A stretch of 64,000 bases of DNA, from contig CAYGPJ010000014.1 in NCBI GenBank assembly GCA_964351865.1, forward strand, positions 35,556 through 99,555. Direction: 5' to 3'. The stretch comes from an uncultured Blastochloridaceae bacterium (lineage in GTDB: Bacteria; Verrucomicrobiota; Verrucomicrobiia; Methylacidiphilales; JBCBYL01). The notes under the pieces were generated by a model. It was not told the DNA's origin. It saw only the letters and a list, made by a program, of their open reading frames with translations, and made no database searches. Below are positions 2,895 through 64,000 of the stretch, one piece after another (within the stretch, counting starts at the first letter, position 1; each line of letters starts with the position of its first letter). The position numbers were made by a program, and so were the translations under genes.

Positions 2895-3017
2895 AGTCGT
2901 CTAATTCGTTGACTGCCATTCGAGTCAATCCCGATCCCGACTGGGTCCGGTGATCTATATTCAATCTGCGGTTGGCTCGGCATAAGTCATATTCAAACTA
3001 AGATGCAAATTCTGTCA

Positions 3018-3068
3018 AGATCGTCACCTGACCCCTTTCTCCAAAGATCGTCACCTGACCCCTTTCTC
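3018..3068 (+). repeat. Perfect 25-bp tandem direct repeat (2 copies, 'aagatcgtcacctgacccctttctc') immediately upstream of transposase remnant; 19-bp inverted copy at 2855-2873
   Basis: Read directly: 3018-3042 and 3044-3068 are identical; the reverse complement of the core occurs at 2855-2873. Confidence 0.85.
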
Positions 3069-3075
3069 GACCCAT

Positions 3076-3831
3076 CTGTATCTTGAAACGCCGCAGGGTA
3101 ATCTCAGCCAAGCGATGAGCTGGCTGCAGACAACGTTCACCATCCGTTACAATCGAAAGAAAAAGCGTGTAGGTCATTTGTTTCAAGGACGCTACAAGGC
3201 TCAATTGGTCGAGGACGATCACTACGGGCAGGAATTGATCGAATACATTCATTTGAATCCAATTCGCAAACGAAAGAACGGTCGGGTGATTCAGTTCGGC
3301 GACTGGGAGCAATTGATAAACTACCCATGGAGCAGTCATTTCCAGTATAGTCGTAGCGAGGAAGATTCACGAGTGCCCGTGAACGTTAAATATTTAAAGT
3401 TCTGGGGAAAAGATGAAACAACCGGACGTGCGGCATACCGCAAAAGCTTGAGGAAGCTGGTGACCAATGACGTTCCAGTGGATCCATTTACTGAAATTCA
3501 GGAAAGTCTGGCGATGGGGAGTAAAGATTTCCTCAAGAAAGCAAAAGAGATGGTGGCCGCCAAATCAGGCAAAACCGAAAAAAAGAAAAAGAAGCGCTGG
3601 CAGGCGGTAGATCGTGAAGCGGAAATTAGAAAACGACTCAATAAAGAACGGATAAACGGGTGATGATCTGGGCATTGGTTAGCCTGGCAGGAGTTTCAGG
3701 GGTGAAGTTGGCAAGTGAATTTGGGTATGGGGACGGCAGTGGAATTTACCGTGTGGTGCAGCGATTGAATAAAAAGGCCCAGCACGATGAAGTGCTGTAT
3801 AAGAAGTTGGAAGCGCTGAAAAATCAGTCAA
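3076..3831 (+). pseudogene. Degenerate COG1943 (RayT / IS200-like Y1) transposase-like gene with C-terminal DnaA_C-like HTH; N-terminally truncated and frameshifted near 3660
   Basis: Frame 1 (to 3663) encodes 'LETPQGNLSQAMSWLQTTFTIRYNRKKKRVGHLFQGRYKAQLVEDDHYGQELIEYIHLNPIRK', the conserved core of the RayT/IS200-like family. The HUH N-terminal part is missing. After a frame change at about 3660 the sequence continues as 'LASEFGYGDGSGIYRVVQRLNKKAQHDEVLYKKLEAL', which resembles a DnaA C-terminal-type HTH. The antisense ORF 2998-3339 is spurious. Confidence 0.6.
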
Positions 3832-3920
3832 GAGTCAAGCCACGACCCCGAAGAAGAGTCAAGCCACGACCCCGAAGAGACCCCGAAGAGAGGTGTAAGA
3901 GTCAAGCCACGACCCCGAAG
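3829..3920 (+). repeat. Three tandem copies of a 20-mer 'gtcaagccacgaccccgaag' (REP-like); fourth copy at 5526-5550
   Basis: Copies at 3832-3851, 3858-3877 and 3901-3920. A variant 'gtcaagcctcgaccccg' sits at 5531-5547. The ORF 3660-3950 that 'encodes' RVKPRPRR repeats is an artefact of this DNA repeat. Confidence 0.8.
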
Positions 3921-3995
3921 AGGTGTAAAGGTATAAAAGTGGTAAGGTAGGAAAGTGGCAGCTCAATGCTAGCTCTCCCGTCATTTACCAATCAG

Positions 3996-5457: not shown

Positions 5458-5745
5458 GTTATTTTACAGGGGAAAAGAAATAGGGGTGGAACAAAAATAG
5501 GTCTGTCCACTAAGTTTCTCAAATGCGTCAAGAGTCAAGCCTCGACCCCGTTGATAAGAGATACAAGATTAGTTTCAAAACAGGGTTCTGACATGAATGG
5601 CATTCTATACACTTCCGGAACTGTCATACGGAATCGATTTGGTTCAGCAAATTCTATGAATTTGAGTGAAAATGAACGACGAAATGCAATTTCATCCTAC
5701 AGAGCTGACGCCAGTGGCGATCGTTACCTATCAGGGAAACCGCTT

Positions 5746-6702
5746 CTATTCAAAAGAGATAAATTGATCAAGTAAGGGGCTTTTGCGGATGCGCTGGATT
5801 CTATGAGTATAGCGATCCACTTTCTCACGCTGAATTTCCAGCAGTCCCCATTCTTCCAGGGGCTCCAACACATAAATGTTTAACAATTTGTCAGGGGTAA
5901 AATAGGTTACCCCGGATAGGTCGGATTCAAGTTGGGCCAGTGCCATGGGATGCAGTAATTGTTGGCATAGTTGGTCGGCCTCGATCCATGTTGCACCTCG
6001 ATCCTGCAGCGGCTTGAGTGCGTATGGAACTTCGTATTGCAGCCAGTCCAATTCAGGACGCAATCGAGTGCGGTAACCGATGTTGAATTTAGTGAAATAG
6101 GTCAGGAATAGTTGTCGGTAGAGTTTTCCGGCGGATTCTTCCTTGAGGAGGGGTAGTGACTTTTTACGGACCGAGTAGTGTCCTTTGCTGATGCCGATCA
6201 ACCCGCTGAGTTTGCAGATGATGCGGGCAATATGCAGGGGAAACACATCTTCTTCGTTGAGGACCTTATGGTACGAAAGAACTTGTTCCTTGGTTTTTGT
6301 ATCGAAAAAGACATCGACCATCTCGGTGACGAATCCCCGAGTGAAGTTGCCTTTGGGAGTCGATTTGACCCGTCCTGTTTCATGCAGGGCTAGTAGAAAT
6401 TGGCGAATGCGGATGAAACTTTTGGAACCGCTCAGTTCATCGATGGTCAGTTGATCTGAGAATTGAAGGGGGCTTTCCGGACTTCCCATGGGGTGATTGT
6501 ATAAGGTGTGTAGCATCTTGGGACTGAACCCGCCCATCGTTGCCTGGGAAGTGTTATTGTAATCCTGCACGATGGCATCCAGGGCTGCCTGAATGTCTTG
6601 TGGAGCCGAGGCTTCCTCCTGATCCAGCACCTGTTTCAGTTGTGCTCTCAATTCAGGAGGTAGACCACCTCCTTCGGCGGGGTTCGAATTAAATTGAATC
6701 AC
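5746..6702 (-). CDS. Hypothetical protein
   Basis: 318-aa ORF with coding-like composition; no recognisable motifs. Confidence 0.45.
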   Translation of the reverse strand: MIQFNSNPAEGGGLPPELRAQLKQVLDQEEASAPQDIQAALDAIVQDYNNTSQATMGGFSPKMLHTLYNHPMGSPESPLQFSDQLTIDELSGSKSFIRIRQFLLALHETGRVKSTPKGNFTRGFVTEMVDVFFDTKTKEQVLSYHKVLNEEDVFPLHIARIICKLSGLIGISKGHYSVRKKSLPLLKEESAGKLYRQLFLTYFTKFNIGYRTRLRPELDWLQYEVPYALKPLQDRGATWIEADQLCQQLLHPMALAQLESDLSGVTYFTPDKLLNIYVLEPLEEWGLLEIQREKVDRYTHRIQRIRKSPLLDQFISFE

Positions 6703-7436: not shown

Positions 7437-7479
7437 GGGGTAAGGAGTAAGGAGTAAGGATTAAGGATTGTGGATTGGG
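7437..7479 (+). repeat. Heptad direct repeats (taaggag x2, taaggat x2, tgtggat, tgggcgg); related array at 49355-49394
   Basis: Read directly. Shares the 15-mer 'taaggattaaggatt' with the 49355-49394 array. Confidence 0.7.
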
Positions 7480-8005
7480 CGGGAGATAAATAATAAAGGA
7501 GCTGGTTCAACGGGATCAACTCTCGCGCGAAGGCTACTTCAAATGTTTTCGCGAGCGAGCGGCTCGATCCTCATCCATCAAAGAATATGATGGCGGTGTG
7601 ACCTGCCAGGTGAATCCTAATGTTTATAAAGGGGGGGGTGCCTAAAGTTTTTGCAGGATGAGATGGGCTCCATTGTGAATCACAGCACAATGATTGCGTT
7701 GGGTCTGTATTCCGGCTTGGCTATTCGGTTGGTATGAAAAAATCACCTCAAGGGCGATGCTGCTTCATGTTAACGGATCTGGGATCACCGGGTTAGGTGG
7801 GCGAGGCTCCCGCAAAAAATGTGACCATCAGACAAGTCAACTTACTTCATGGCATGAGCTCGCCAGAACCGTCAGGTAGGTCGGCGGTTTGAACGCAACA
7901 TAAAGAAGGTGTCTTTGGTGTATTTCGGGTCCGCAACACACCATTCATTTTAATTAATGATGTGAAATATTTGACAGGTAACGAATTGGCATGACGTTTA
8001 CCTGT

Positions 8006-8597: not shown

Positions 8598-8985
8598 GAG
8601 AGTTGCGTCCAAGTACTTGCCTCTAGAGCGTTTCCGAAATATGTTTTAACATGTAGGGCGAGATTGCATCTCGCCAACTTCCATCCCGGCAAGATGCAAG
8701 CTTTAGGCTGCGCCTAAACTAAACAAGTTAGAAAGTTATTTTGGTCGCGCTATCGCGCTGGGTTTTCTTGCCCTACATCTATTTTCCTCTGTTGATCGTG
8801 TGAGAACTTAATTCGGAAAAGCTCTAGTAGTTCGTTGCACGTCTAAAGACGGGTAGGGCGGTTTGTCTCAAACCGCTTTGGGATACGATACCAAATATGA
8901 TATAGAACCCGAAACGGAAACCAGCGCCTTGAGACAAGACGCCCTACCATACCCGTCATCCTATGCGCAACGAACTACTAGTACT
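8598..8985. repeat. Mosaic of non-coding hairpin repeats (families A, C, E)
   Basis: 8650-8675 'catgtagggcgagattgcatctcgcc' (also at 21578-21610). 8688-8779 is family C (also 40883-40998 rc and 63667-63794). 8822-8981 is a family A element: 17-bp terminal IR 'ctagtagttcgttgcac', enclosing a 20-bp inner IR 'ggtagggcg..ttgtctcaa / ttgagacaagacgccctacc'. Confidence 0.8.
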
Positions 8986-9048
8986 TCACAAGTCGCAATT
9001 GGTACGTTCACAGAGTTGCGCTGAAGACGGTTCCCGATATGCTACAGC

Positions 9049-18996: not shown

Positions 18997-19347
18997 TAGT
19001 AGCAGTTCATTGCACATACTTTGACGAATAAGGTGGGGCGTCTTGTCCCAAGGCGCCGGGTTCTACCTCCCGACCACACAGGGTGTCGGCATCGGCACGT
19101 TGGGGATCCCGCGGCCGCGCATACATATCAACATAAGAGGTATAAAACGATATTTAGAGGTCGTATTTCAACAGAGAGCTGAGGTAGTGCGCTTTGTCCT
19201 CAAAGCGCTGGGTGGTCACTACGGGAAAGCGGTTTGGTCCCGACACCCTGCGTGGTCGGGAGCCCTACCTTTGTCATATTCCATATGTTGATGCATAAGC
19301 GCGGCCGCGTGACCCTACCTCTCACTACAGATGCAATGAACTACTTG
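18997..19347. repeat. Family A mosaic repeat element (about 350 bp, non-coding)
   Basis: Terminal IRs 'ctagtagcagttcattgcac' (18997-19016) and 'tgcaatgaactact' (19332-19345). The interior holds 'ggggcgtcttgtcccaaggcgcc' hairpin modules shared with 26266-26620 and 27764-27903. Confidence 0.8.
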
Positions 19348-20969: not shown

Positions 20970-21173
20970 ATGAGTACAGGAATAGTTAAGTGGTTCAATT
21001 CAGAAAAAGGCTACGGCTTTATCACCCCAGATGATGGAGGACAAGATCTCTTCGTTCATCACAGCGAAATTCAAGCGACAGGCTATGCATCGTTAGACGA
21101 TGGCCAAAAAGTCAGCTACGAAGTTGGCCAGGGACAAAAAGGGCCATGCGCTCAAAAAGTCGAAACCGTCTAA
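20970..21173 (+). CDS. cspA: Cold-shock protein CspA family
   Basis: '[15 protein letters not shown]' RNP1 and 'VFVHHS' RNP2 motifs, 67 aa. Confidence 0.95.
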
Positions 21174-21194: not shown

Positions 21195-21235
21195 CCGCAG
21201 GGGGCATCGATCATTCGGTGCCCCCTGTTTTTTTT
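21195..21235 (+). terminator. Rho-independent terminator after cspA
   Basis: 'cagggggcatcgatcattcggtgccccctg' stem followed by T8. Confidence 0.8.
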
Positions 21236-21290
21236 GCCCGCATTTAGAGCATTTTCGAATGGTGTTCTAACACTGATTCAGGTGGCCCAC

Positions 21291-21612
21291 GATAGGGGAC
21301 GGAGTAATATTTTCCGTGCAAGTGGTATAGGTCCTATGAAAGCAGGGTGGCAGGAAAAAATTACTCCGTCCCCTATCGTTCAGCGATTTGCTGAATTAAT
21401 ACTGAATGTCGCAGATATGCGATTTTATCGGAGCCAGATCTTCAGAGAAAAGACTTTCGCGTATTTCGCGGTTAATTTATTTCTGGAAAAATGGCTCAGT
21501 TCTTTTAACGGGGATAAGAGGGCAGGACTTATAGCGTTTCCGAATTAAGTTCTCACACGGTGACCTGATTAAAATACATGTAGAGCAAGATTGCATCTCG
21601 CCCTACATGTTT
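21291..21612. repeat. Family D and family E repeat elements
   Basis: 18-bp perfect IR 'gataggggacggagtaat…attactccgtcccctatc' (21291-21377). 21536-21612 'agcgtttccgaattaagttctcacac…catgtagagcaagattgcatctcgccctacatg' matches 8627-8675 and rc of 8785-8815. The region 21360-21450 recurs inverted at 63850-63968. ORF 21234-21548 is spurious. Confidence 0.8.
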
Positions 21613-21681
21613 GAACATCATTCGAAAACGCTCTCAATCTTCAATGTATCACGTGATACATTGAAGATTGGCGCGGTGATA

Positions 21682-22371
21682 TTACTTGCGCTTTCCCTTG
21701 TTCATCCAGCCTAGATTGATGGTTGGTTGTTTCCTGGCTTTGGTTTGAGCCGTATGGCCCGTCTTGCCGGCCTGGCTGGAACCGGGGATGAGGGTATCGA
21801 TAAACTGCAGGATCTGATTTTTGCCGGCGGCTGTTTTCGCGGAGCACTGAAAAAACTTGGCCGGGTGAATCGATAGGGCTTCACACTCTTCCATGAACAG
21901 CGCGGTGTGATTCTGGACGGCCGATTTTGAACTGCGGTCCGTTTTGGTGAAGATCAGTGAGAAGGGTAAAGTCATTTCCTGCAGCCACTCGATGAAGGTG
22001 AGATCGCTATCCATCGGCGGGTGCTGGGAATCGATCAGAATGAAAATCTGTTTCAGATTTTCCCGTTCCAACAGGTATTCACTGATATTTTCATTGAACT
22101 CCTGTCGTTCGCGTTTGGAGACTTTGGCGTAGCCGTAGCCGGGCAAATCAACCAGCCGCCAGCGCTCGTTAATTGAGAAAAAATTAATCAACCGGGTTTT
22201 ACCGGGCTGACTGGAAGTGCGGGCCAGTCCCTCTTTGCCGGTTAACATGTTGATCAGCGAAGATTTGCCTACGTTAGAACGACCGAGAAAAGCGAACTCC
22301 GGCACGCTGGCTGGCGGGCAGCGTTCCAGATCAGGTGAACTGGTGAGCAGGGTGGCGGAGGAAATTTTCAT
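21682..22371 (-). CDS. engB: Ribosome biogenesis GTP-binding protein EngB/YsxC/YihA
   Basis: G1 'GRSNVGKSS', G3 'DLPGYG', G4 'TKTD'; basic C-terminal tail. Confidence 0.9.
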   Translation of the reverse strand: MKISSATLLTSSPDLERCPPASVPEFAFLGRSNVGKSSLINMLTGKEGLARTSSQPGKTRLINFFSINERWRLVDLPGYGYAKVSKRERQEFNENISEYLLERENLKQIFILIDSQHPPMDSDLTFIEWLQEMTLPFSLIFTKTDRSSKSAVQNHTALFMEECEALSIHPAKFFQCSAKTAAGKNQILQFIDTLIPGSSQAGKTGHTAQTKARKQPTINLGWMNKGKRK

Positions 22372-23506: not shown

Positions 23507-23642
23507 ATGAGAAAACGGTAGCACAGGGGAGGGGCAGAGAGCGACAAGAAGAATGGATTAAGCATAAAAGATAAACAGAGATTCTGCTCACATTTCTGAA
23601 ATAGATCTGGCAGTGTTGGTAGATCAACAAGCGGATGGCATC

Positions 23643-25382
23643 ATGAAAAATTTCCGGAAGCAACCCGTATTCTATCCACAGTCGTTAAGGCTGCTGCGGG
23701 ACAAAGAAGCGAAAAAGGAGTTTTCATGGTCTGGAGAAATCAGTGCAGGCCTGACGGTCGGAATGATCGCACTGCCGCTGGCGCTGGCGTTGGGTATAGC
23801 CAGTATACCGCAAGGGGTCGAGACGCCGCTGCCGGCACCGGCGCTGGGCATATTGACCGCGATCGTCGCGGGACTGATCATTGCCGTGTTGGGAGGAAGT
23901 CGGGTGCAGATCGGCGGGCCGACGGCGGCGTTTATCCCGATCATCCTGCTCATTGTTTCGGAGCACGGTTACTCCGGCATGCTACTGGCTACCATGATGG
24001 CAGGAGGCATTCTTATTGTGATGGGGCTGGCTCGTATGGGGGCGTTGATCCGGTATATTCCGTGGCCGGTGACCAGCGGATTCACCTCAGGGATTGCCGT
24101 AGCCATCATGCTGACGCAAGTCAGGGATTTTGCGGGACTGACCACCGGAGCAGGAATGCCGCGGGAATTTACCGCCAAAGTGGGGTGGATCATTGATAAC
24201 CTGCATTCGTTTAACGGCTTTGCGATTGGCTTGGCTGTAGCCTGCGTGGCGGTCATCTGGTGGTGGCCCAAGTTGAAGATAAAATATCTTCCGGGTCCCG
24301 TGGTGGCCTTGCTCATGGCAACCCTCTTCACGCTGGTGATGGGTTGGAGCTCCGGACATGGTGTGGAAACGATCGGAACCCGCTTCGGTGCAAACGCCAT
24401 TCCGGATTCGCTGCCGTGGCCCTCCATGCCGGTATGGAGCTGGAGTATGGTGCGGGAACTGATCGGTCCCGCTACCGCCATTGCTTTGCTGGGTGCCATT
24501 GAATCGCTTCTTTCCGACGTGGTAGCGGATGGACTGAGCGGAAACCGTCACGACAGCAATACCGAACTGATTGCACAGGGTATCGCTAATTTGGTCTGTC
24601 CTTTTTTCGGGGGCTTGCCAGCTACCGGGGCGATCGCGAGAACGTCTGCAAATATCAGTAACGGGGGCAAAACCCCGCTGGCGGGAATCATTCATGCGAT
24701 GACCCTGCTGGGGGTTGTGCTGCTGGCGGCGCGCTGGGCGGTGTATATTCCCATGGCGACCATGTCAGCTATTTTGGTGGTAGTCGCGCTACGTATGGGG
24801 GAGTGGCATGAACTGGTCAGGCTGCATAAAATGCCAAGAAGTGACGCGCTCGTGCTGGTCACCACATTTGGGCTGACGGTGGTCTTTGATTTGGTCATTG
24901 CCGTGGAGGTAGGGATGGTGCTGGCCGCGATTCTATTTATAAAGCGGGTTTCGGAGACGACAGAAATCAGTCAAGTGACTGAGGATGACATGCTGGAACG
25001 ACCTGAACATATCGCGCTGGGGAAAAAAATTCCGGACGGGGTGATTGTGTACCGAATTTTCGGACCGTTTCTTTTTGGTGCGGCTGAGATGCTGGAGGAT
25101 GCCCTGCTGCAGCATGGGGCTTTTCCGCGAGTCATTATTCTACGCTTGAATTTGGTCTCGGCGATGGATATCACCGCCCTCAATGCGCTGGAAAGTGTGG
25201 TGGAAAGGGCAGGAAAACACCAGGCACAGGTGATCATCAGCGGCATCCACCGCCAACCACTCGCCATGCTGCTCAAAGCTGATTTCGTTCAAGTGATCGG
25301 CAGAGAAAACTTTTGTGCCACCTATGAAGCCGCGCTGGTGAGAGCGGATCAGATATTAAAAAATCAGGGACAACTTTTGTAG
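23643..25382 (+). CDS. SulP-family anion transporter with C-terminal STAS domain
   Basis: Multiple TM helices, SulP signature region, C-terminal STAS-like 'VIILRLNLVSAMDITALNALESV'. Confidence 0.9.
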   Translation: MKNFRKQPVFYPQSLRLLRDKEAKKEFSWSGEISAGLTVGMIALPLALALGIASIPQGVETPLPAPALGILTAIVAGLIIAVLGGSRVQIGGPTAAFIPIILLIVSEHGYSGMLLATMMAGGILIVMGLARMGALIRYIPWPVTSGFTSGIAVAIMLTQVRDFAGLTTGAGMPREFTAKVGWIIDNLHSFNGFAIGLAVACVAVIWWWPKLKIKYLPGPVVALLMATLFTLVMGWSSGHGVETIGTRFGANAIPDSLPWPSMPVWSWSMVRELIGPATAIALLGAIESLLSDVVADGLSGNRHDSNTELIAQGIANLVCPFFGGLPATGAIARTSANISNGGKTPLAGIIHAMTLLGVVLLAARWAVYIPMATMSAILVVVALRMGEWHELVRLHKMPRSDALVLVTTFGLTVVFDLVIAVEVGMVLAAILFIKRVSETTEISQVTEDDMLERPEHIALGKKIPDGVIVYRIFGPFLFGAAEMLEDALLQHGAFPRVIILRLNLVSAMDITALNALESVVERAGKHQAQVIISGIHRQPLAMLLKADFVQVIGRENFCATYEAALVRADQILKNQGQLL

Positions 25383-26265: not shown

Positions 26266-26620
26266 ATGAGTAGTTCATTCGGGCTGTAGAGAGGGGTAGG
26301 GTTCCTCGGTCGCGGTATCCCCAAGCGCCGATCCCGACACCATGTGTGAGCGGAGGTCGAATCGGCGCCTTGGGACCCGTCGCCGCTAAGGCTATGCCGA
26401 GGCAAGCAAGACGCCCTACCTAGGCGTTTCGCAATTTATTTGCCGCACGGTTTGGTAATGCGTCGGTAAGAAATCCTACGGATATTCTCACCCTACACGG
26501 GGAAAATGTAGGACGAGAATGTCCGGCTGTTGCCGGACTTCTTGTCAAACGCCTTGATCATTGCGGCAGATTAATTAGATACCGCTCTAATCGTCAAAGT
26601 ATGTGCAATGGACTACTAGA
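26266..26620. repeat. Family A mosaic repeat element
   Basis: Termini 'gagtagttcattc' / 'gcaatggactactag'; inner 'gggtagggttcc…ggcgccttgggacccg…caagacgccctacc' hairpins. Confidence 0.8.
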
Positions 26621-27763: not shown

Positions 27764-27995
27764 ACTAGTAGTTCATTGGATGTGTAGTGAGGGGTAGGGC
27801 GTGTTGTCCCCAACGCGCCGAGGCGTAGCTTGGTGAACCCGGCACCTTGGGACAAGACGCCCTACCTTAATCCTCAAAGGTTTTGTAATGCACTAATAGT
27901 AGACCGTGCAAGACGATATGACGGGAATTGCAGGCCGAGATTGGATCTTGTCGCATTCACCAATCGCTTTCACAACCGGCAAGATACAATCTTAC
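27764..27995. repeat. Family A element (27764-27903) followed by family B element (27896-27995; second copy 40839-40885)
   Basis: 'actagtagttcattgg…gggtagggcgtgttgtcccc…ccttgggacaagacgccctacc…aatgcactaatagtag'; then 'tagtagaccgtgcaagacgatatgacgggaattgcaggccgaga', shared with 40839-40882. Confidence 0.8.
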
Positions 27996-28020
27996 CCTAC
28001 AGTCGGAAAAACTGATGGAA

Positions 28021-31250: not shown

Positions 31251-32540
31251 ATGTTTACCGATTACACCCATCCACAAGCTAAACTGGTCCAGACGATGGA
31301 TCGCATCTATAAATATGAAATGACCACGACTTCGGGGGGCAATTTGTCGCTGGTCGATGAGGAGTCTAAAATGTGGATCACTCCGTCACGAGTGGATAAA
31401 GGAGGTCTACAGGAACGGGATATTGTTAGTATTGACGCGGGTGGAAAAATCACGGGAATACACCCGCCTTCCTCTGAGTATCCGTTTCACCGCCAAATCT
31501 ACGAAGTTCGGCCAGGCATTAAGGCCATCATCCATGCCCATCCGGTGGCCTTGGTGGCATTCAGTGTCGTGCGACAAATCCCGGATGTGCTGGCGTTTAC
31601 TAAAGCCCTCAAACGATGCGGTAAAATTGCGCTGGCTCCTTACGCCTTACCGGGCAGTGAAATGCTGGGTAAAAATATTGCCGACCAGTTTAAAGCGGGA
31701 TGCGATGTGGCGATTCTGGAAAATCATGGTGTCGTTGTTGGTGGAGCAACTCTGGAACAAGCATACGAACGCTTTGAATTGCTGGAGTTTTTTTGTCGCT
31801 CTTTGATTCAGGCCTCACGGATCGGAAAAGTGAAGGCAATGGATCAGTGGGATCTGAAGTTGTTGGAAAATCGGCCGGAGCCGTTGCCTGAGTTGGAACA
31901 GCACACTCCGACCACCCCGGAGAAAGAAGCGCGTGCGGAACTGGCGCGGTTTGTCCGGCGTGGTTATGAACATGGACTGTTTACCGGAATCCAAGGGACC
32001 TTTTCGGCGCGATTAAGTGACGAAGAGTTTCTGATTACTCCACGGCAAGCGGACCGCAGTAAGCTCTCGGCTGGTGATTTGTGCTACGTAAAGCAAGGGT
32101 GCGTTGAGCCGGGTAAAGAAGCCAGCCTAGGGGCGCGCAGCCACCTTGAAATTTATCGGCAGCAACCCGAGGTTAAATCGATTATCAATGCTGCACCGCC
32201 ATCAGCGCTGGGATTTGCGATGACGCGGGAGTCGTTGAATTCGCGCACCATCCCGGAAAGTTATCTCTTTTTGCGCGAGGTGCCGCGTTTGTCGTTGAGT
32301 GATGTCTATGGCAATGAAGGAAGTGTTGCCGCCCAGGTGAGTCTGAGGCAGCCGGTTTCCCTGGTGGACAATGAAGGCGTATTAGTGGTCGCCGCTTCGG
32401 TCTTTGAAGCCTTTGACCGGCTGGAGGTGACCGAGGCAACGGCGCAGTCGCTGGTTGAGTCGTCTACATTGGGGCAAGTCTGTCCGATGGAAGATGCCGC
32501 GATTGAAGAGTTGAAAGAAGCTTTTGGATTAAAGGATTAG
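31251..32540 (+). CDS. Class II aldolase/adducin-family protein with tandem domains
   Basis: Two class II aldolase-like halves (His-rich 'IHAHP', 'ENHG'). Confidence 0.75.
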   Translation: MFTDYTHPQAKLVQTMDRIYKYEMTTTSGGNLSLVDEESKMWITPSRVDKGGLQERDIVSIDAGGKITGIHPPSSEYPFHRQIYEVRPGIKAIIHAHPVALVAFSVVRQIPDVLAFTKALKRCGKIALAPYALPGSEMLGKNIADQFKAGCDVAILENHGVVVGGATLEQAYERFELLEFFCRSLIQASRIGKVKAMDQWDLKLLENRPEPLPELEQHTPTTPEKEARAELARFVRRGYEHGLFTGIQGTFSARLSDEEFLITPRQADRSKLSAGDLCYVKQGCVEPGKEASLGARSHLEIYRQQPEVKSIINAAPPSALGFAMTRESLNSRTIPESYLFLREVPRLSLSDVYGNEGSVAAQVSLRQPVSLVDNEGVLVVAASVFEAFDRLEVTEATAQSLVESSTLGQVCPMEDAAIEELKEAFGLKD

Positions 32541-32559
32541 TGAATGAGGGGAGGTGCTA

Positions 32560-32610
32560 ATGGGGGACGGAGGTTCATTGGCATATGCGAACTCCTCCGT
32601 CCCTTTTATA
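32560..32610 (+). terminator. Bidirectional intrinsic terminator between convergent genes; stem shares 'gggacggag' core with family D repeats
   Basis: 'gggacggaggttc…gaactcctccgtccc' followed by 'ttttata'. Confidence 0.6.
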
Positions 32611-35103: not shown

Positions 35104-35877
35104 TTAGCGGGTGGCTTGATAATTCTCCAGATTATGATGTGTCGGTTCAAGCCGGGAAAGTGGGCTGACGCGAAAATGGTGTTGCTCGAGCAGGCACTTT
35201 ACGGCTGAAGCAGGATCCTTGCTATCTTCAAAAATAATCGAGTGCAGCGTGTCCCCGGCTAACAGAGAGGTAAGACCCGCGAGCACTTGAGCTTCATGAC
35301 CCTCGACATCAATTTTGATGACATGGGGCGGCGCGGCCTGACCCCTGCTGATCAAATAGTCTCCGCTGAATGTCGACACTTGAATAGCTTCCAGCGTGGC
35401 GTCGTTCTCCCAATTGTGAAGCCCGTTGCGACCGGCATTGCCTGGGTGGCGGTAAAAGTCGGCGGTTCCATTTTCAGCGTCCAGCGCGATTTGGTGTAAG
35501 TCAATTTCCAGTCGATTGTGATCCGCGGCTTTACTGATGAGCTGTGCCATTGCTGGATTGGGTTCAAAGGCATAAACCGTTGAATCGGGGAAATGTGATT
35601 TGATGGTCAGCGAGTGAATTCCGAGGTTGGCACCGATGTCCCAGAATACCTGACCCGGGCAGAGAGCAGATTCGATGGCCTGCAAAACTTCCTGTTCATA
35701 GTAACCATACTGGATGATGCGGTGGTCAATATACTCGAAAGGATCCAGGAAGAGGCGGATCTGATGACTGGTGTTAACTTCGATTCTGCGTCCTCGGCAG
35801 CAAATGCTGTGAAAGCGGGTGGCGCCGCGGAGTCGCTTACGATAGAGAAATGCAGAAATTCGATCAGAGAGTTTCAT
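35104..35877 (-). CDS. FkbM-family SAM-dependent methyltransferase
   Basis: 'VFWDIGANLGIHS…VYAFEPNP' FkbM motif. Confidence 0.8.
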   Translation of the reverse strand: MKLSDRISAFLYRKRLRGATRFHSICCRGRRIEVNTSHQIRLFLDPFEYIDHRIIQYGYYEQEVLQAIESALCPGQVFWDIGANLGIHSLTIKSHFPDSTVYAFEPNPAMAQLISKAADHNRLEIDLHQIALDAENGTADFYRHPGNAGRNGLHNWENDATLEAIQVSTFSGDYLISRGQAAPPHVIKIDVEGHEAQVLAGLTSLLAGDTLHSIIFEDSKDPASAVKCLLEQHHFRVSPLSRLEPTHHNLENYQATR

Positions 35878-40834: not shown

Positions 40835-40998
40835 TAGTAGACCGTGCAACATGATATGACAGGAACTGTAGGCCGAGAAAACCCAGCGCGATAGCGCGGC
40901 CAAAAAAATAATTTCTAACTTGTTTAGTTTAGGCGTAGCCTAAAGCTTGCATCTCGGCTCCTTCTAAACTGTCGAGATGCAATCTCGACCTACATTTT
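40835..40998. repeat. Family B + family C repeat elements (reverse orientation)
   Basis: 'tagtagaccgtgcaacatgatatgacaggaactgtaggccgaga' followed by the reverse complement of family C 'gcaagctttaggc…cgcgctatcgcgctggg'. Confidence 0.8.
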
Positions 40999-49299: not shown

Positions 49300-49354
49300 A
49301 CGGCAAACATTATACGAATGTTTCCTGCAGGCGCAAATGGGTGTGGGAAAAAAT

Positions 49355-49394
49355 GGGTAAGGATTGAGAATTAAGGATTAAGGATTAAGACTGG
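49355..49394 (+). repeat. Heptad direct repeats 'taaggat' in divergent promoter region (shares 15-mer with 7437-7479)
   Basis: 'gggtaaggattgagaattaaggattaaggattaagactgg'. Confidence 0.7.
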
Positions 49395-61170: not shown

Positions 61171-61923
61171 ATGTTAAAGCGACTATCAAATCTCATCAAA
61201 GGCTTTATGGGCCTGTTCATCAGCGGTATGGAAAAAAGCAATCCGGAGGCATTGCTGGAAGTGGAAAAAGAGAATCTGCGTCAGCAGATATCCAAATACA
61301 ACCAGGGACTGGCGGCTCATGCCGGCATGTGTGAACGCCTGATGAGTCAGGTCAAAAAGCTGGAAGAAGAAGAAAGCCAGTTGACTGGAAAAGCCAAAGC
61401 CCACCTGCGGGCCGGCAATCAGGATGCCGCTGGCCAATACGCGCTGCGCTTACAGACGATTAAACGCGAGCTGATGGAAAACCGCAGCCAGCTGGAATCC
61501 GCTGAACACACTTATCAGGAACTGGTGAAGGCGCGGGACGTGTCGATTCGTTCCGCAAAAGATAAAATTGCATCGCTCAAGAGCAGCATCAGTGAAATGA
61601 GAATGAAAACCGCAGAAGCCGAGCTGACGGAAATGGCTGCGGGGATGATTACCGACATCGGTGGTTCCGGCGATACCTTGAATCGCCTGCAGGAAATGGT
61701 GGAAGAAGAGAAACAACTGGCTGCCGGTAAAGCGCGGGTGGCTAAAGATTCACTGAATACAGATGAAATTGAAATTCAGGAAATTGAACAAAAAGCGCTG
61801 GCGGATCAGGCTTTAGCGGATTTTGCCGCCAGCGAAGGATTAACCCTGGATACCGGATCAGAACCAGCTCCGGCCGAAGACGCCACGGGTGAATCCAAAT
61901 CCATGGGGCCTCAAACCCAGTAA
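61171..61923 (+). CDS. pspA: PspA/IM30/Vipp1-family protein (ESCRT-III superfamily)
   Basis: 250 aa; long amphipathic helices; N-terminal 'MLKRLSNLIKGFMGLFISGMEKSNPEALLE' matches the PspA pattern. Confidence 0.85.
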   Translation: MLKRLSNLIKGFMGLFISGMEKSNPEALLEVEKENLRQQISKYNQGLAAHAGMCERLMSQVKKLEEEESQLTGKAKAHLRAGNQDAAGQYALRLQTIKRELMENRSQLESAEHTYQELVKARDVSIRSAKDKIASLKSSISEMRMKTAEAELTEMAAGMITDIGGSGDTLNRLQEMVEEEKQLAAGKARVAKDSLNTDEIEIQEIEQKALADQALADFAASEGLTLDTGSEPAPAEDATGESKSMGPQTQ

Positions 61924-61975
61924 CAGCATTCAGTGATCGCAGGCCAAAACCGATCACACCTTCAGGGGAATCCTT

Positions 61976-63655
61976 ATGAAGAAGGTTGACTCCTCAGTTC
62001 CCGCTTGGACGCAAGAAATTGCGACCTTGTATGAGAGCGGGGCATACAATCAGTTTATCCTGCACGGTAACCTGAATGATTCTTTCCTGGTCTCCGATCC
62101 GGGCGGGCAGAAACTTGGCGACATCTATTCGCTGATCAATCGCCAATTACTCAGCGGATTCGATGTCGTTCTGACTTACGATTTGGGGCGTGGCATATTA
62201 GCTGAGAAAGGTCGCGAAGCTTTTTCTCAATGGCCTTCACACGACGCAGAAAATTTGCAGACACGTAAACCCAGGGACGCCGTGGTCACCCTGACCCATT
62301 ACTTCCGGTATGTCGCCAATCTGAGAAATATCAGCGGATCATCCAAAGCGCCCAAAGTTGCCGCATTGATCAAAGGAGCCGAGTGGATGGCTCCCGCGGT
62401 CCAGAGCGGACTCAATTACGAACTCAATGCGACCGCATTGATGATGAAGGAATGGAGTCAGGACCCGTTACTGCTTTCGCATCATCTCGCCACGTTTCTG
62501 TTTTCGGAAAACATGAATGATTTGCACCCCTTACTGGCTAATAATCCGCGGGCGGCACGGGTTAAGGTTGATCTGCCGGATGCCGCACAGTGGAAGCGCT
62601 TTTTCTCTTTCGCGGCCGCATCATTTAAGGAAACCCTGCCCGAGACGGACGGAACAAGTTGGCAAGGCAGCGATCAATTTCTAGGGGCCAGCTGTCATGC
62701 GGTCTGGCAGTTATTGCAGCGACGGGCTTATGAAAAAGAACCGCTGAAAATTAGTGATGCCGTCAGCCTGAAAAAATCACTGGTAGAAAAAGAGTGCCAG
62801 GGGTTGATTGAATTTACCGAGTCGGATCGGACACTCGATGATATTGCGGGCCAGGAGGCGATTAAAAATCTGCTGCGACAGGATATCGCCTTGTTGCATC
62901 AGGGGGACACCAAGGCATTGCCGATGGGGTATTTGCTGTGCGGTCCGGTGGGAACCGGAAAAACGTATTTCGTGGAATGTCTGGCTGGTGAGGCCGGCAT
63001 TCCGGTGGTGACTATTAAAAATTTCCGCGATAAGTGGGTGGGGTCGAGTGAAGGGAATCTCGAGAAAATTTTCCGCCTGCTGCATGCGCTGGAACGCTGT
63101 TTTGTCTTCATCGATGAGGCCGACCAATCCCTTGGGAAACGCGACAGTGGTAGCAGCGATTCCGGATTGTCCGGTCGAATCTATTCCATGTTCGCCAAAG
63201 AGATGAGTCAGGTGCGAAATCGCGGTAAAATCATTTGGCTGTTGGCTTCGAGCCGGCCGGACCTGATTGAGGTGGATCTGAAGCGCCCGGGTCGGGTAGA
63301 TGTGAAAATACCGTTATTGCCCGCGCATACCCCCGCGGGAGTGGCTGGATTATTATATGCGCTTTGCCGTAAACAGGGGATCGAGCTGTCCGAAGCACAG
63401 ATCCTGGAGCATCAGGAAATCTTGCCGGAGTGGCTGACGCCAGGCAGTGCAGAAGCTTTAGCCGTCAAACTCTATCGGAACATTAAAGCCGACGGGTTAA
63501 ATCCGTTGGAAGCCTTATCCTCTGCTTTAAATGGTTACCAGAACCCGGTGCCGCGCGATGTGATGGAGTTTCAGATCGATCTCGCCGTCAGGGAATCGTC
63601 GGACATGAGTTTCGTGCCCGAGGCCTTTCAAAAGCCGCAAAGTCAGAGCGTTTAA
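61976..63655 (+). CDS. Classic-clade AAA+ ATPase (FtsH/Vps4/CDC48-type single AAA cassette) with novel about 300-aa N-terminal domain
   Basis: Walker A 'CGPVGTGKT', Walker B 'VFIDEAD', SRH 'SSRPDLIEVDLKRPGRVD'. Confidence 0.85.
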   Translation: MKKVDSSVPAWTQEIATLYESGAYNQFILHGNLNDSFLVSDPGGQKLGDIYSLINRQLLSGFDVVLTYDLGRGILAEKGREAFSQWPSHDAENLQTRKPRDAVVTLTHYFRYVANLRNISGSSKAPKVAALIKGAEWMAPAVQSGLNYELNATALMMKEWSQDPLLLSHHLATFLFSENMNDLHPLLANNPRAARVKVDLPDAAQWKRFFSFAAASFKETLPETDGTSWQGSDQFLGASCHAVWQLLQRRAYEKEPLKISDAVSLKKSLVEKECQGLIEFTESDRTLDDIAGQEAIKNLLRQDIALLHQGDTKALPMGYLLCGPVGTGKTYFVECLAGEAGIPVVTIKNFRDKWVGSSEGNLEKIFRLLHALERCFVFIDEADQSLGKRDSGSSDSGLSGRIYSMFAKEMSQVRNRGKIIWLLASSRPDLIEVDLKRPGRVDVKIPLLPAHTPAGVAGLLYALCRKQGIELSEAQILEHQEILPEWLTPGSAEALAVKLYRNIKADGLNPLEALSSALNGYQNPVPRDVMEFQIDLAVRESSDMSFVPEAFQKPQSQSV

Positions 63656-63666
63656 TCGGGGACTCT

Positions 63667-63968
63667 AGGGCAAGATAGCATCTTGCCGGAATGATCATTG
63701 GCGAGATGCAAGCTTTAGGCTACGCCTAAACTAAACGAGTTAGAAATCATTGGTATTCTCCGCGCTATCGCGCTGGGTTTTCTCGCCCTACATGACCATC
63801 TCCTGTTGGCGAAACATGTTGAGCGAATCGTATGATAGCTGACGCATCCAATAGATGAAGCGCCGCAACTCCGAAAGGATTCGCGAGAGATCTCCGATAA
63901 AATCGCGAGTCTGCGAAATGCTGCATCGACTTACCAAAGCGCTGAACGCTAGGGGACGGAGTAATTTT
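63667..63968. repeat. Family C (63667-63794) and inverted family D (63850-63968) repeat elements
   Basis: 'ggcaagatagcatcttgcc…gcgagatgcaagctttaggctacgcctaaactaaacgagttagaaa…cgcgctatcgcgctgggttttctcgccctacat'; 'tccgataaaatcgcgagtctgcg…cgctgaacgctaggggacggagtaa' is the reverse complement of 21360-21440. Confidence 0.8.
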
Positions 63969-64000
63969 TTCCTACCATCCCGTTTTCAAAAGGCCAATAC

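Follow-up and report, generated by a model that had tools for sequence, protein, structure and literature searches.

A foldback repeat, possibly of the REPIN or MITE kind, in an inserted mosaic of miniature repeats between cspA and engB of a Verrucomicrobiota bacterium

We analysed 64,000 nucleotides of contig CAYGPJ010000014.1 from an uncultured bacterium (this whole 64-kb stretch is referred to as the window), in which a palindromic repeat, here called D, lies between the convergent genes cspA and engB. Tentatively, with a probability of about 0.45, we read D as a non-coding foldback repeat of the kind represented by REPINs (built from repetitive extragenic palindromic, REP, sequences) and by MITEs (miniature transposable elements with inverted repeats), which is part of a mosaic of about 460 bp inserted into the cspA/engB terminator region and which spreads in the manner of REP and REPIN elements. 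The evidence comes from the structure of D and its second copy, from related genomes in which the site is empty, and from hairpins with the same stem in unrelated bacteria.

The D element comprises a hairpin and a tail, and a second copy is cut by the end of the window:

21289-21379, no strand: D hairpin, two arms and a 37-nt spacer, core GGGGACGGAGTAAT, TA at both feet; 56 bits with the covariance model R1 (see below)
21380 to ~21505, + strand: D tail, non-coding, travels with the hairpin, ~75% identity to copy 2
63826-64000, - strand: D copy 2, inverted, with the tail, a single arm (63946-63972, ACGCTAGGGGACGGAGTAATTTTTTCC) and a portion of the loop

A preliminary description of this DNA had pointed to perfect reverse complements at 21291-21308 and 21360-21377. 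The 18-nt sequence GATAGGGGACGGAGTAAT is indeed present exactly at both places, on the + and - strands respectively, and self-comparison of the window lengthens the arms to 27 nt (21289-21315 and 21353-21379, complementary at 26 of 27 positions). A third GATAGGGGACGGAGTAAT arm with one mismatch is found at 63948-63965, where 0.03 such matches are expected from shuffles of the window. Folded as single-stranded DNA, the D hairpin reaches -29.4 kcal/mol, compared to -8.9 +/- 2.3 kcal/mol for shuffled sequences (z = -9.1). Its flanks read CGA-TA-GGGG...CCCC-TA-TCG, and a TA also stands beside the visible foot of copy 2.

The same description had proposed a repeat family with an inverted reappearance at the window end and a unit of at least 150 bp, and the alignment of the two copies bears this out. 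Positions 21325-21433 match 64000-63892 at 80% over 109 nt, and the gapped match reaches ~21505 and 63826, with 131 of 171 aligned positions identical (77%). The window ends inside the hairpin loop of copy 2. Thus, the D repeat unit is a hairpin plus a tail of ~125 nt, ~215 bp altogether. Conserved islands within the tail are CGTTCAGCG and GCGATTTTATCGG, and no third copy of the tail was found within the 64-kb window. The two copies share 24 consecutive identical bases, AGGAAAAAATTACTCCGTCCCCTA, while being otherwise 77-80% identical; the chance of such a run at 80% identity is 0.8^24, or ~0.005. The arms of D are conserved far above its loop and tail. Both copies in the window are extragenic and lie 3' of genes.

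The structure of D corresponds to that of REP and REPIN hairpins in having two inverted conserved sequences of ~20-40 nt around a short spacer, and to that of MITEs in having terminal inverted repeats (TIRs), a small size and no coding capacity. The GT[AG]G foot of REPs is not present: both arms of copy 1 have ATAG and copy 2 has CTAG. Across the whole window nothing was retrieved from Rfam at gathering thresholds, and in E-value mode the segment 21180-21700 and six of the foreign loci described below gave only sub-threshold matches to generic (miRNA-like) hairpins.

D is embedded in a larger block of repeats between convergent cspA (20970-21173, + strand, encoding a CspA/CspE family protein) and engB/ysxC (21682-22371, - strand), in which modules of a second family, E, are also found:

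21236-21697, no strand: inserted block, a mosaic of miniature repeats, ~460 bp, with no counterpart in L014, L017 and L019 (loci of relatives)
21245-21272, + strand: outer terminal repeat 'a' of the E family (TAGAGCATTTTCGAATGGTGTTCTAACA), pairing with 21607-21634 (24/28)
21530-21634, - strand: short E element, internally deleted and inverted relative to 8624-8826, with repeat 'b' at 21530-21557, core hairpin at 21576-21610 and repeat 'a' at 21607-21634
21635-21670, no strand: 36-nt perfect palindrome CAATCTTCAATGTATCAC/GTGATACATTGAAGATTG (no loop), 100% self-complementary
21682, - strand: engB stop, supplied by the inserted block

RecF homologues place the window in the Verrucomicrobiota, and relatives whose RecF is 82-88% identical keep the gene order cspA, engB, DEAD-box helicase, recF. 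We aligned the window with four loci (L014, L017, L019 and L020). In the first three, the cspA terminator (AAGGGGCATCGGTGATCCGGTGCCCCTTATTTTTTG) runs straight into the end of engB (CCCTTGTTCATCC...), with 0 bp where the window has ~460 bp, and the engB stop codon falls within the T-run of the terminator. The relatives read ...TTTTTTG and then CCCTTGTTCATCC, and it is exactly there that the block interrupts the window. At the junctions there is a possible imperfect duplication, TTTGCCC/TTTCCC. Because three relatives are without it, we conclude that the block 21236-21697 is inserted DNA specific to the window's lineage; the presence/absence difference applies to the whole 460-bp block and not to D by itself. 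This main point, that the whole block is inserted mobile DNA absent from relatives, was missed in the preliminary description. The insertion reshaped a gene end: engB in the window ends in ...KGKRK* and in the relatives in ...KGKK*, its final codons and stop being taken from the block. In ~50 kb of the relatives' DNA we found no D, E-outer or F repeats (F is a third family, described below). The one exception in that DNA is an inverted doublet that carries the GTAG tag, is related to the E-core family and directly follows recF in the relative closest to the window (L017, 4152-4205). The empty-site comparison covers the cspA/engB site; the AAA ATPase gene beside D copy 2 lacks a close orthologue in the relatives (best 59%).

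The 36-nt palindrome lies within the inserted block, 11 nt from the engB stop codon, and the relatives are without it. Its predicted fold reaches -15.2 kcal/mol (z = -7.9), and it occurs once in the window. It could be an operator-like site or a further miniature element.

To look for the D stem elsewhere, we scanned a collection with one genome per species, to which the source genome does not belong, for exact matches to GGGGACGGAGTAAT-N25-55-ATTACTCCGTCCCC. The scan retrieved nine hairpins (L001-L009) in two Clostridia metagenome-assembled genomes (MAGs) from soda lakes and one Coriobacteriales MAG from sheep gut. These foreign hairpins share CAGGGGGACGGAGTAATT, have unrelated loops and are sited between housekeeping genes; no transposase was found beside them. 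Those of the Clostridia are flanked by simple repeats of the GGGGACAG type. The two Clostridia MAGs are 86% identical and carry a hairpin at an orthologous locus (L004, 540-605, and L006, 2108-2182), where the two 26-nt stems agree at every position (100%) but enclose unrelated loops, and where GGGGACAG repeats flank them in differing number. The identity of the stems points to constraint on them, or to their homogenisation, and is the pattern typical of REP/REPIN elements.

A 19-mer scan of metagenomes gave three matches, which is about the number expected by chance when estimated with a guessed collection size. One contig (L011) carries a similar hairpin at 924-982. In another (L013, 36% GC) a stretch of 12.5 kb contains five or more copies, of which two stand in tandem and most are followed by T-runs; the hairpins lie at 1568-1701, 3692-3758, 6037-6183 and 7696-7762, and one copy sits where the reading frame of an IS66 transposase ends. 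The third match (L012) lies inside a transporter gene and was set aside as a chance match. No further copy of the window's D family was found in the metagenome scan, and viral, plasmid and phage collections held no match to D. A literature search with the core sequence as a string returned unrelated primers only.

From 15 hairpins of the D class from five sources we built the covariance model R1. In their alignment most core positions (GGACG.AG / T..G.CC) are invariant and the rest of GGACGGAG/CTCCGTCC is at least 90% conserved; one stem position shows an exchange of T-A for C-G. Hairpins with the stem core GGACGGAG/CTCCGTCC are thus known from Verrucomicrobiota, Clostridia, Coriobacteriales, one contig of 55% GC and one of 36% GC. 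They may represent an undescribed palindromic repeat family, patchily distributed across phyla, with the stem core GGACGGAG(Y)AA/TT(R)CTCCGTCC and free loops. Such a family might be maintained by a horizontally transferred dedicated enzyme, most plausibly an HUH tyrosine (Y1) transposase of the TIRYT type, with some members co-opted as terminators (those in L013 and perhaps the hairpin at 32563, described next). We consider this proposal as a whole doubtful.

The preliminary description had also suggested that the repeat family derives from or supplies terminator-like hairpins, with cspA among the genes whose transcription might be terminated, and that the stem is echoed in a terminator at 32563-32603. 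Two intrinsic terminators bear on these claims:

21197-21236, + strand: cspA intrinsic terminator from the terminator scan, stem GCAGGGGGCATCGA/TCGGTGCCCCCTGT (21197-21228) followed by eight T, -14.9 kcal/mol
32563-32603, + strand: terminator hairpin after the aldolase-like gene, followed by TTTTAT (read directly from the sequence), -11.9 kcal/mol

The hairpin of the cspA terminator is conserved in L014, L017 and L019, where it abuts the engB stop. Intrinsic terminators combine a GC-rich stem, a loop of 3-8 nt and a T-run. The hairpin at 21197-21236 has this combination; D has a loop of 37 nt and no T-run on either strand, the next sequence being ATCGTTCAGCG on the + strand and GTGGGCCACC on the - strand, and the terminator scan did not list it. 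D also lies ~60 nt downstream of the canonical terminator, which the relatives use alone. On account of its loop, its lack of a T-run and its position, the D hairpin is not the cspA terminator, and the proposed role is abandoned. As for the echo, D and 32563-32603 are alike in GGGGACGGAG/CTCCGTCCC only and differ in their flanks and in the TAAT/ATTA part. The 10-mer GGGGACGGAG occurs four times in the window (0.16 expected), and the fourth occurrence is the 5' arm of the 32563 hairpin. When R1 was run on the window, 32557-32609 scored 18.2 bits (rough E value 0.009), and nothing else apart from D had E < 1. On sequence grounds the echo is suggestive, being more than a random 10-mer and far from proof of common descent.

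A 104-amino-acid open reading frame (ORF) predicted across the block (21234-21548) had been dismissed as an artefact, and we agree. No homologue was found among 5.8 billion proteins. The differences between the D copies are spread over codon positions 1, 2 and 3 as 7/6/9 (22 differences) or 15/11/14 (40 differences), their indels, with lengths of 4, 2, 1, 1, 3, 4 and 1, do not come in multiples of three, and the frame is closed in copy 2 by a TAG where copy 1 reads CAG.

D shares the window with two other families of miniature repeats, E and F. For the E family the reference elements are:

8624-8826, + strand: full-length E element, 203 bp, outer repeats a and b around a 128-bp core (8651-8778)
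63646-63793, + strand: E-core copy beside D copy 2, a GTAG-tagged palindromic module; the AAA ATPase gene has its stop codon within the degenerate outer repeat of this copy

The segment 21530-21590 is 84% identical to the reverse complement of 8766-8826, and 21585-21634 is 82% identical to that of 8625-8674. Because 21530-21634 matches both ends of 8624-8826 in inverted orientation, it is an internally deleted, inverted E copy, and the module that had been noticed in common between 21536-21612 and the 8624-8826 region is real. The core hairpin of the short element is ACATGTAGAGCAAGA-TTGCA-TCTCGCCCTACATGT and is GTAG-tagged. Read on the minus strand, it leads into ATTTTAAT, and in this orientation the terminator scan lists it as terminator-like. 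The window has three copies of the full 128-bp core, at 8651-8778, at 63664-63793 and, in inverted orientation, at 40866-40995. The modules of this core read ATGTAGGGCGAGA-TTGCA-TCTCGCC ... CCCTACAT, with short forms at 21576-21610, 26486-26518, 27926-28002 and 5678-5702. The core at 63664-63793 lies ~30 nt from the tail of D copy 2, and the AAA ATPase gene (61976-63655) has its stop inside the degenerate outer repeat (63646-63655). That copy 2 is followed by the same terminal repeat 'b' as copy 1 was considered and is not supported.

The F family has the outer repeat TAGTAGTTCATTGCA and inner GGGTAGGGCG hairpins and is found at 8823-8986, 18998-19347, 26268-26620 and 27766-27902. Its elements are 160-350 bp long and bounded by TA, and one begins exactly at the TA that closes an E element (8825-8826). 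The cores of E and F both combine GTAG(G) with a short hairpin, and 20 of the 68 GTAGG in the window fall within repeats, which take up 3.9% of its length, a 7.5-fold enrichment. Two Logan contigs from the same organism break within these repeats: L021 (ERR3534961) starts in an F element and stops at 21299, at the beginning of a D arm, and L010 (ERR3534966) stops at 63726, inside an E core. These breaks suggest that the genome holds further near-identical copies.

If D is a REPIN- or MITE-like repeat as we favour, the course of events would be as follows. The mosaic of the D unit, the short E element and the 36-nt palindrome was, as shown above, inserted in the window's lineage into the terminator region that convergent cspA and engB share. 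The D hairpin would be extruded as single-stranded DNA, and a trans-acting HUH Y1 transposase of the RAYT or TIRYT type, encoded elsewhere in the genome, would recognise, cut and paste it. Any effect on transcription, such as protection of mRNA 3' ends or back-up termination, would be a by-product. We infer that D spread as REP/REPIN-type elements do, and most likely it works like a REPIN.

Previous studies reported that GTAG REPs are abundant in the verrucomicrobium Opitutus terrae (PMC3733652) and that the inverted repeats flanking TIRYT Y1-transposase genes share GGGG[AT][CG]A[CG] (PMC3733652, PMC6006769). This short motif is fitted by the D arm GGGGACGG at 7/8 positions and by the Clostridial flanks GGGGACAG at 8/8. 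Based on this likeness, on the REP reports from Verrucomicrobia, on the GTAG-tagged neighbour families and on the REP-like stems of the Clostridia, we rank HUH Y1 chemistry (RAYT/TIRYT) first, above a TA-targeting MITE mobilised by a DDE transposase. The TA that borders D, E and F makes the latter a serious competitor. D is not filed as a REPIN, because it lacks the GT[AG]G tag and neither enzyme was found in the DNA at hand.

Several observations weigh against our reading of D. The 64-kb window holds two D copies and one doubtful terminator hairpin. The feet are ATAG and CTAG where classical REPs have GTAG or GTGG, the arms are not themselves clear palindromes, and the tail, which travels with the hairpin, lies outside the canonical REPIN. 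The search for a Y1 transposase gene was negative for the window and for all fetched loci: Y1_Tnp gave no hit when 20 ORFs of the window were compared to Pfam, where a genome is expected to have one such gene, and the six-frame ORFs of the window and loci contain no HUH...Y motif. TA-targeting DDE transposons would account equally well for the TA beside both D feet and at the borders of E and F, and the match to GGGGWSAS is short and imperfect.

The alternative that D is a classical MITE, that is, a deleted derivative of a DDE-type insertion sequence (IS) such as IS630/Tc1-mariner, with the 27-nt arms as TIRs and TA as target-site duplication, therefore has to be taken seriously, although we consider it unlikely on balance. 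TA stands at both feet of the hairpin and at the visible foot of copy 2, E and F are also TA-bounded, F begins at the TA that ends E (8825-8826), and the size, the absence of coding sequence and the block missing from relatives are all as expected of such an element. However, TA is self-complementary and the palindrome runs four bases further (ACGA/TCGT), so that the TA may be stem. The right flank of the hairpin is conserved between copies, so that the hairpin alone is not the mobile unit, and no inverted repeat to match it is present at the far end of the 215-bp unit. Plasmid, phage and viral collections yielded no autonomous partner, and the related hairpins of the Clostridia and most of those in L013 are not flanked by TA. 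The lack of an inverted repeat at the far end, and the asymmetry of a unit with a hairpin at one end and a tail at the other, would suit a different origin, in which each D copy is a solo end left by deletion from something larger, either an IS or a Y1 'TIRtron', whose terminal ~215 bp carry a subterminal hairpin; D would then not be a miniature element of its own. Both copies also adjoin an E-core module in the same relative order. We regard this origin as very improbable: there is no transposase fragment next to either copy, the tail carries no coding signal and the 104-amino-acid frame has no homologue.

A host-selected RNA or DNA structure, such as a protein-binding site, a terminator (back-up or bidirectional) or a hairpin that stabilises transcript 3' ends, duplicated locally and of the same functional class as the 32563 terminator, would account for the conservation of the stem far above loop and tail and for the location of both D copies 3' of genes. 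It would also account for the recognition of the terminator hairpin 32557-32609 by R1, the T-runs that follow L013 copies right after ORFs, and the stems kept at orthologous sites in two Clostridia species. D, however, has the long loop and no T-run on either strand, lies past a strong canonical terminator that suffices in the relatives, and is dispensed with by them entirely. It matches no Rfam family, and its copies are linked by identical arm sequence and not by compensatory change. This explanation is thus improbable as well, and the REPIN- or MITE-like foldback repeat remains our preferred account.

Other candidates did not correspond to D. The notion of a cyanobacterial origin (HIP1) was dropped, as GCGATCGC is not enriched and the RecF homologues are verrucomicrobial. 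The ends of plant Stowaway MITEs (CTCCCTCCGTCCC) and those of the Tn3 family (GGGG...) differ from D in orientation and spacing.

Against known systems, D shows a mixture of likeness and difference. REPINs are REP doublets that form hairpins and are served by RAYT Y1 transposases (Bertels & Rainey 2011, PMC3116915, PMC3337134). D resembles them in its two inverted, highly conserved arms of ~25 nt with a less conserved short spacer, in its length of ~90 bp, in its extragenic, non-coding position 3' of genes and between convergent genes, and in the GTAG-tagged families that neighbour it in the window. It differs in its foot (ATAG/CTAG, not GT[AG]G), in arms that are not clearly palindromic and in its 125-nt tail, and no RAYT gene was seen in the 64-kb window or the fetched loci. 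The TIRs of TIRtrons and of TIRYT elements (subclass 2.1 TnpA-Y1) are long inverted repeats with a G-rich GGGG[AT][CG]A[CG] (Di Nocera et al. 2013, PMC3733652; Quentin et al. 2018, PMC6006769). Their moderate abundance, their occurrence as dimers or clusters and their presence in phyla outside the Proteobacteria recall what is described here, although the comparison was made by consensus motif and the motif match is short and, for D, imperfect.

The window also resembles other mosaics and miniature elements. A likeness to bacterial MITEs (Correia elements, IS630-derived) is seen in size, in TIRs, in TA at both ends and in the potential for a long hairpin when transcribed, as well as in nested, clustered insertions near gene ends with a remodelled C-terminus (engB here). 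D differs in that the plasmid, phage and viral collections did not yield an autonomous partner and in that the conserved right flank makes the hairpin less than the whole unit. Bacterial interspersed mosaic elements (BIMEs) are repeats of enterobacteria. The window is similar to them in its intergenic mosaic at gene 3' ends, in which palindromic units of several types alternate in orientation and are joined by conserved linkers, but the sequences are unrelated, and the window units are longer and have outer terminal repeats (TAGAGCGTTTCCGAA..., TAGTAGTTCATTGCA...) that BIMEs lack.

Beyond these families, the window contains short runs of heptamer-type simple repeats (GGGTAAGGAGTAAGGAGTAAGGATTAAGGATT and similar) in two intergenic regions (7438-7469 and 49341-49386), and a tandem-like repeat of 24 nt, AAGAGTCAAGCCACGACCCCGAAG, of which there are three copies and a further one at a distance (3830-3930, 5530-5563). 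A set of 25-31-nt inverted and direct repeats, GGAAAAAGGGGTCAGGTGACGAT, is found at 2850-2880 and 3012-3068, upstream of an ORF at 3115. Compared to the syntenic L014 and L017, the window has an extra aldolase-like gene between presumed mnmA and tsaB (31251-32540). An extra SulP/DauA transporter gene, also present in L020, lies between the DEAD-box helicase gene and recF (23613-25382), and there is an extra FkbM methyltransferase gene (35104-35877). For the PspA-AAA pair at 61171-63655 the relatives offer nothing closer than 59% identity.

As a bacterial repeat, D is of an ordinary kind, seen here in a new host. The sole surprise is the recurrence of one stem core in hairpins from phyla that are not related to each other, the stems staying fixed as the loops diverge. 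If it were tied to one transposase family, this recurrence would extend the REPIN/RAYT picture beyond the Proteobacteria. For annotation, the last codons and stop of engB come from inserted DNA, the AAA ATPase gene ends inside a repeat, and the 104-amino-acid ORF (21234-21548) should stay uncalled; the hairpins also account for the breaking of short-read assemblies of this organism here. The window's lineage has been colonised by at least three miniature palindromic repeat families, and its relatives, at 82-88% RecF identity, have almost none in ~50 kb. The lineage pair could thus serve the study of genome invasion by REP- and MITE-like elements.

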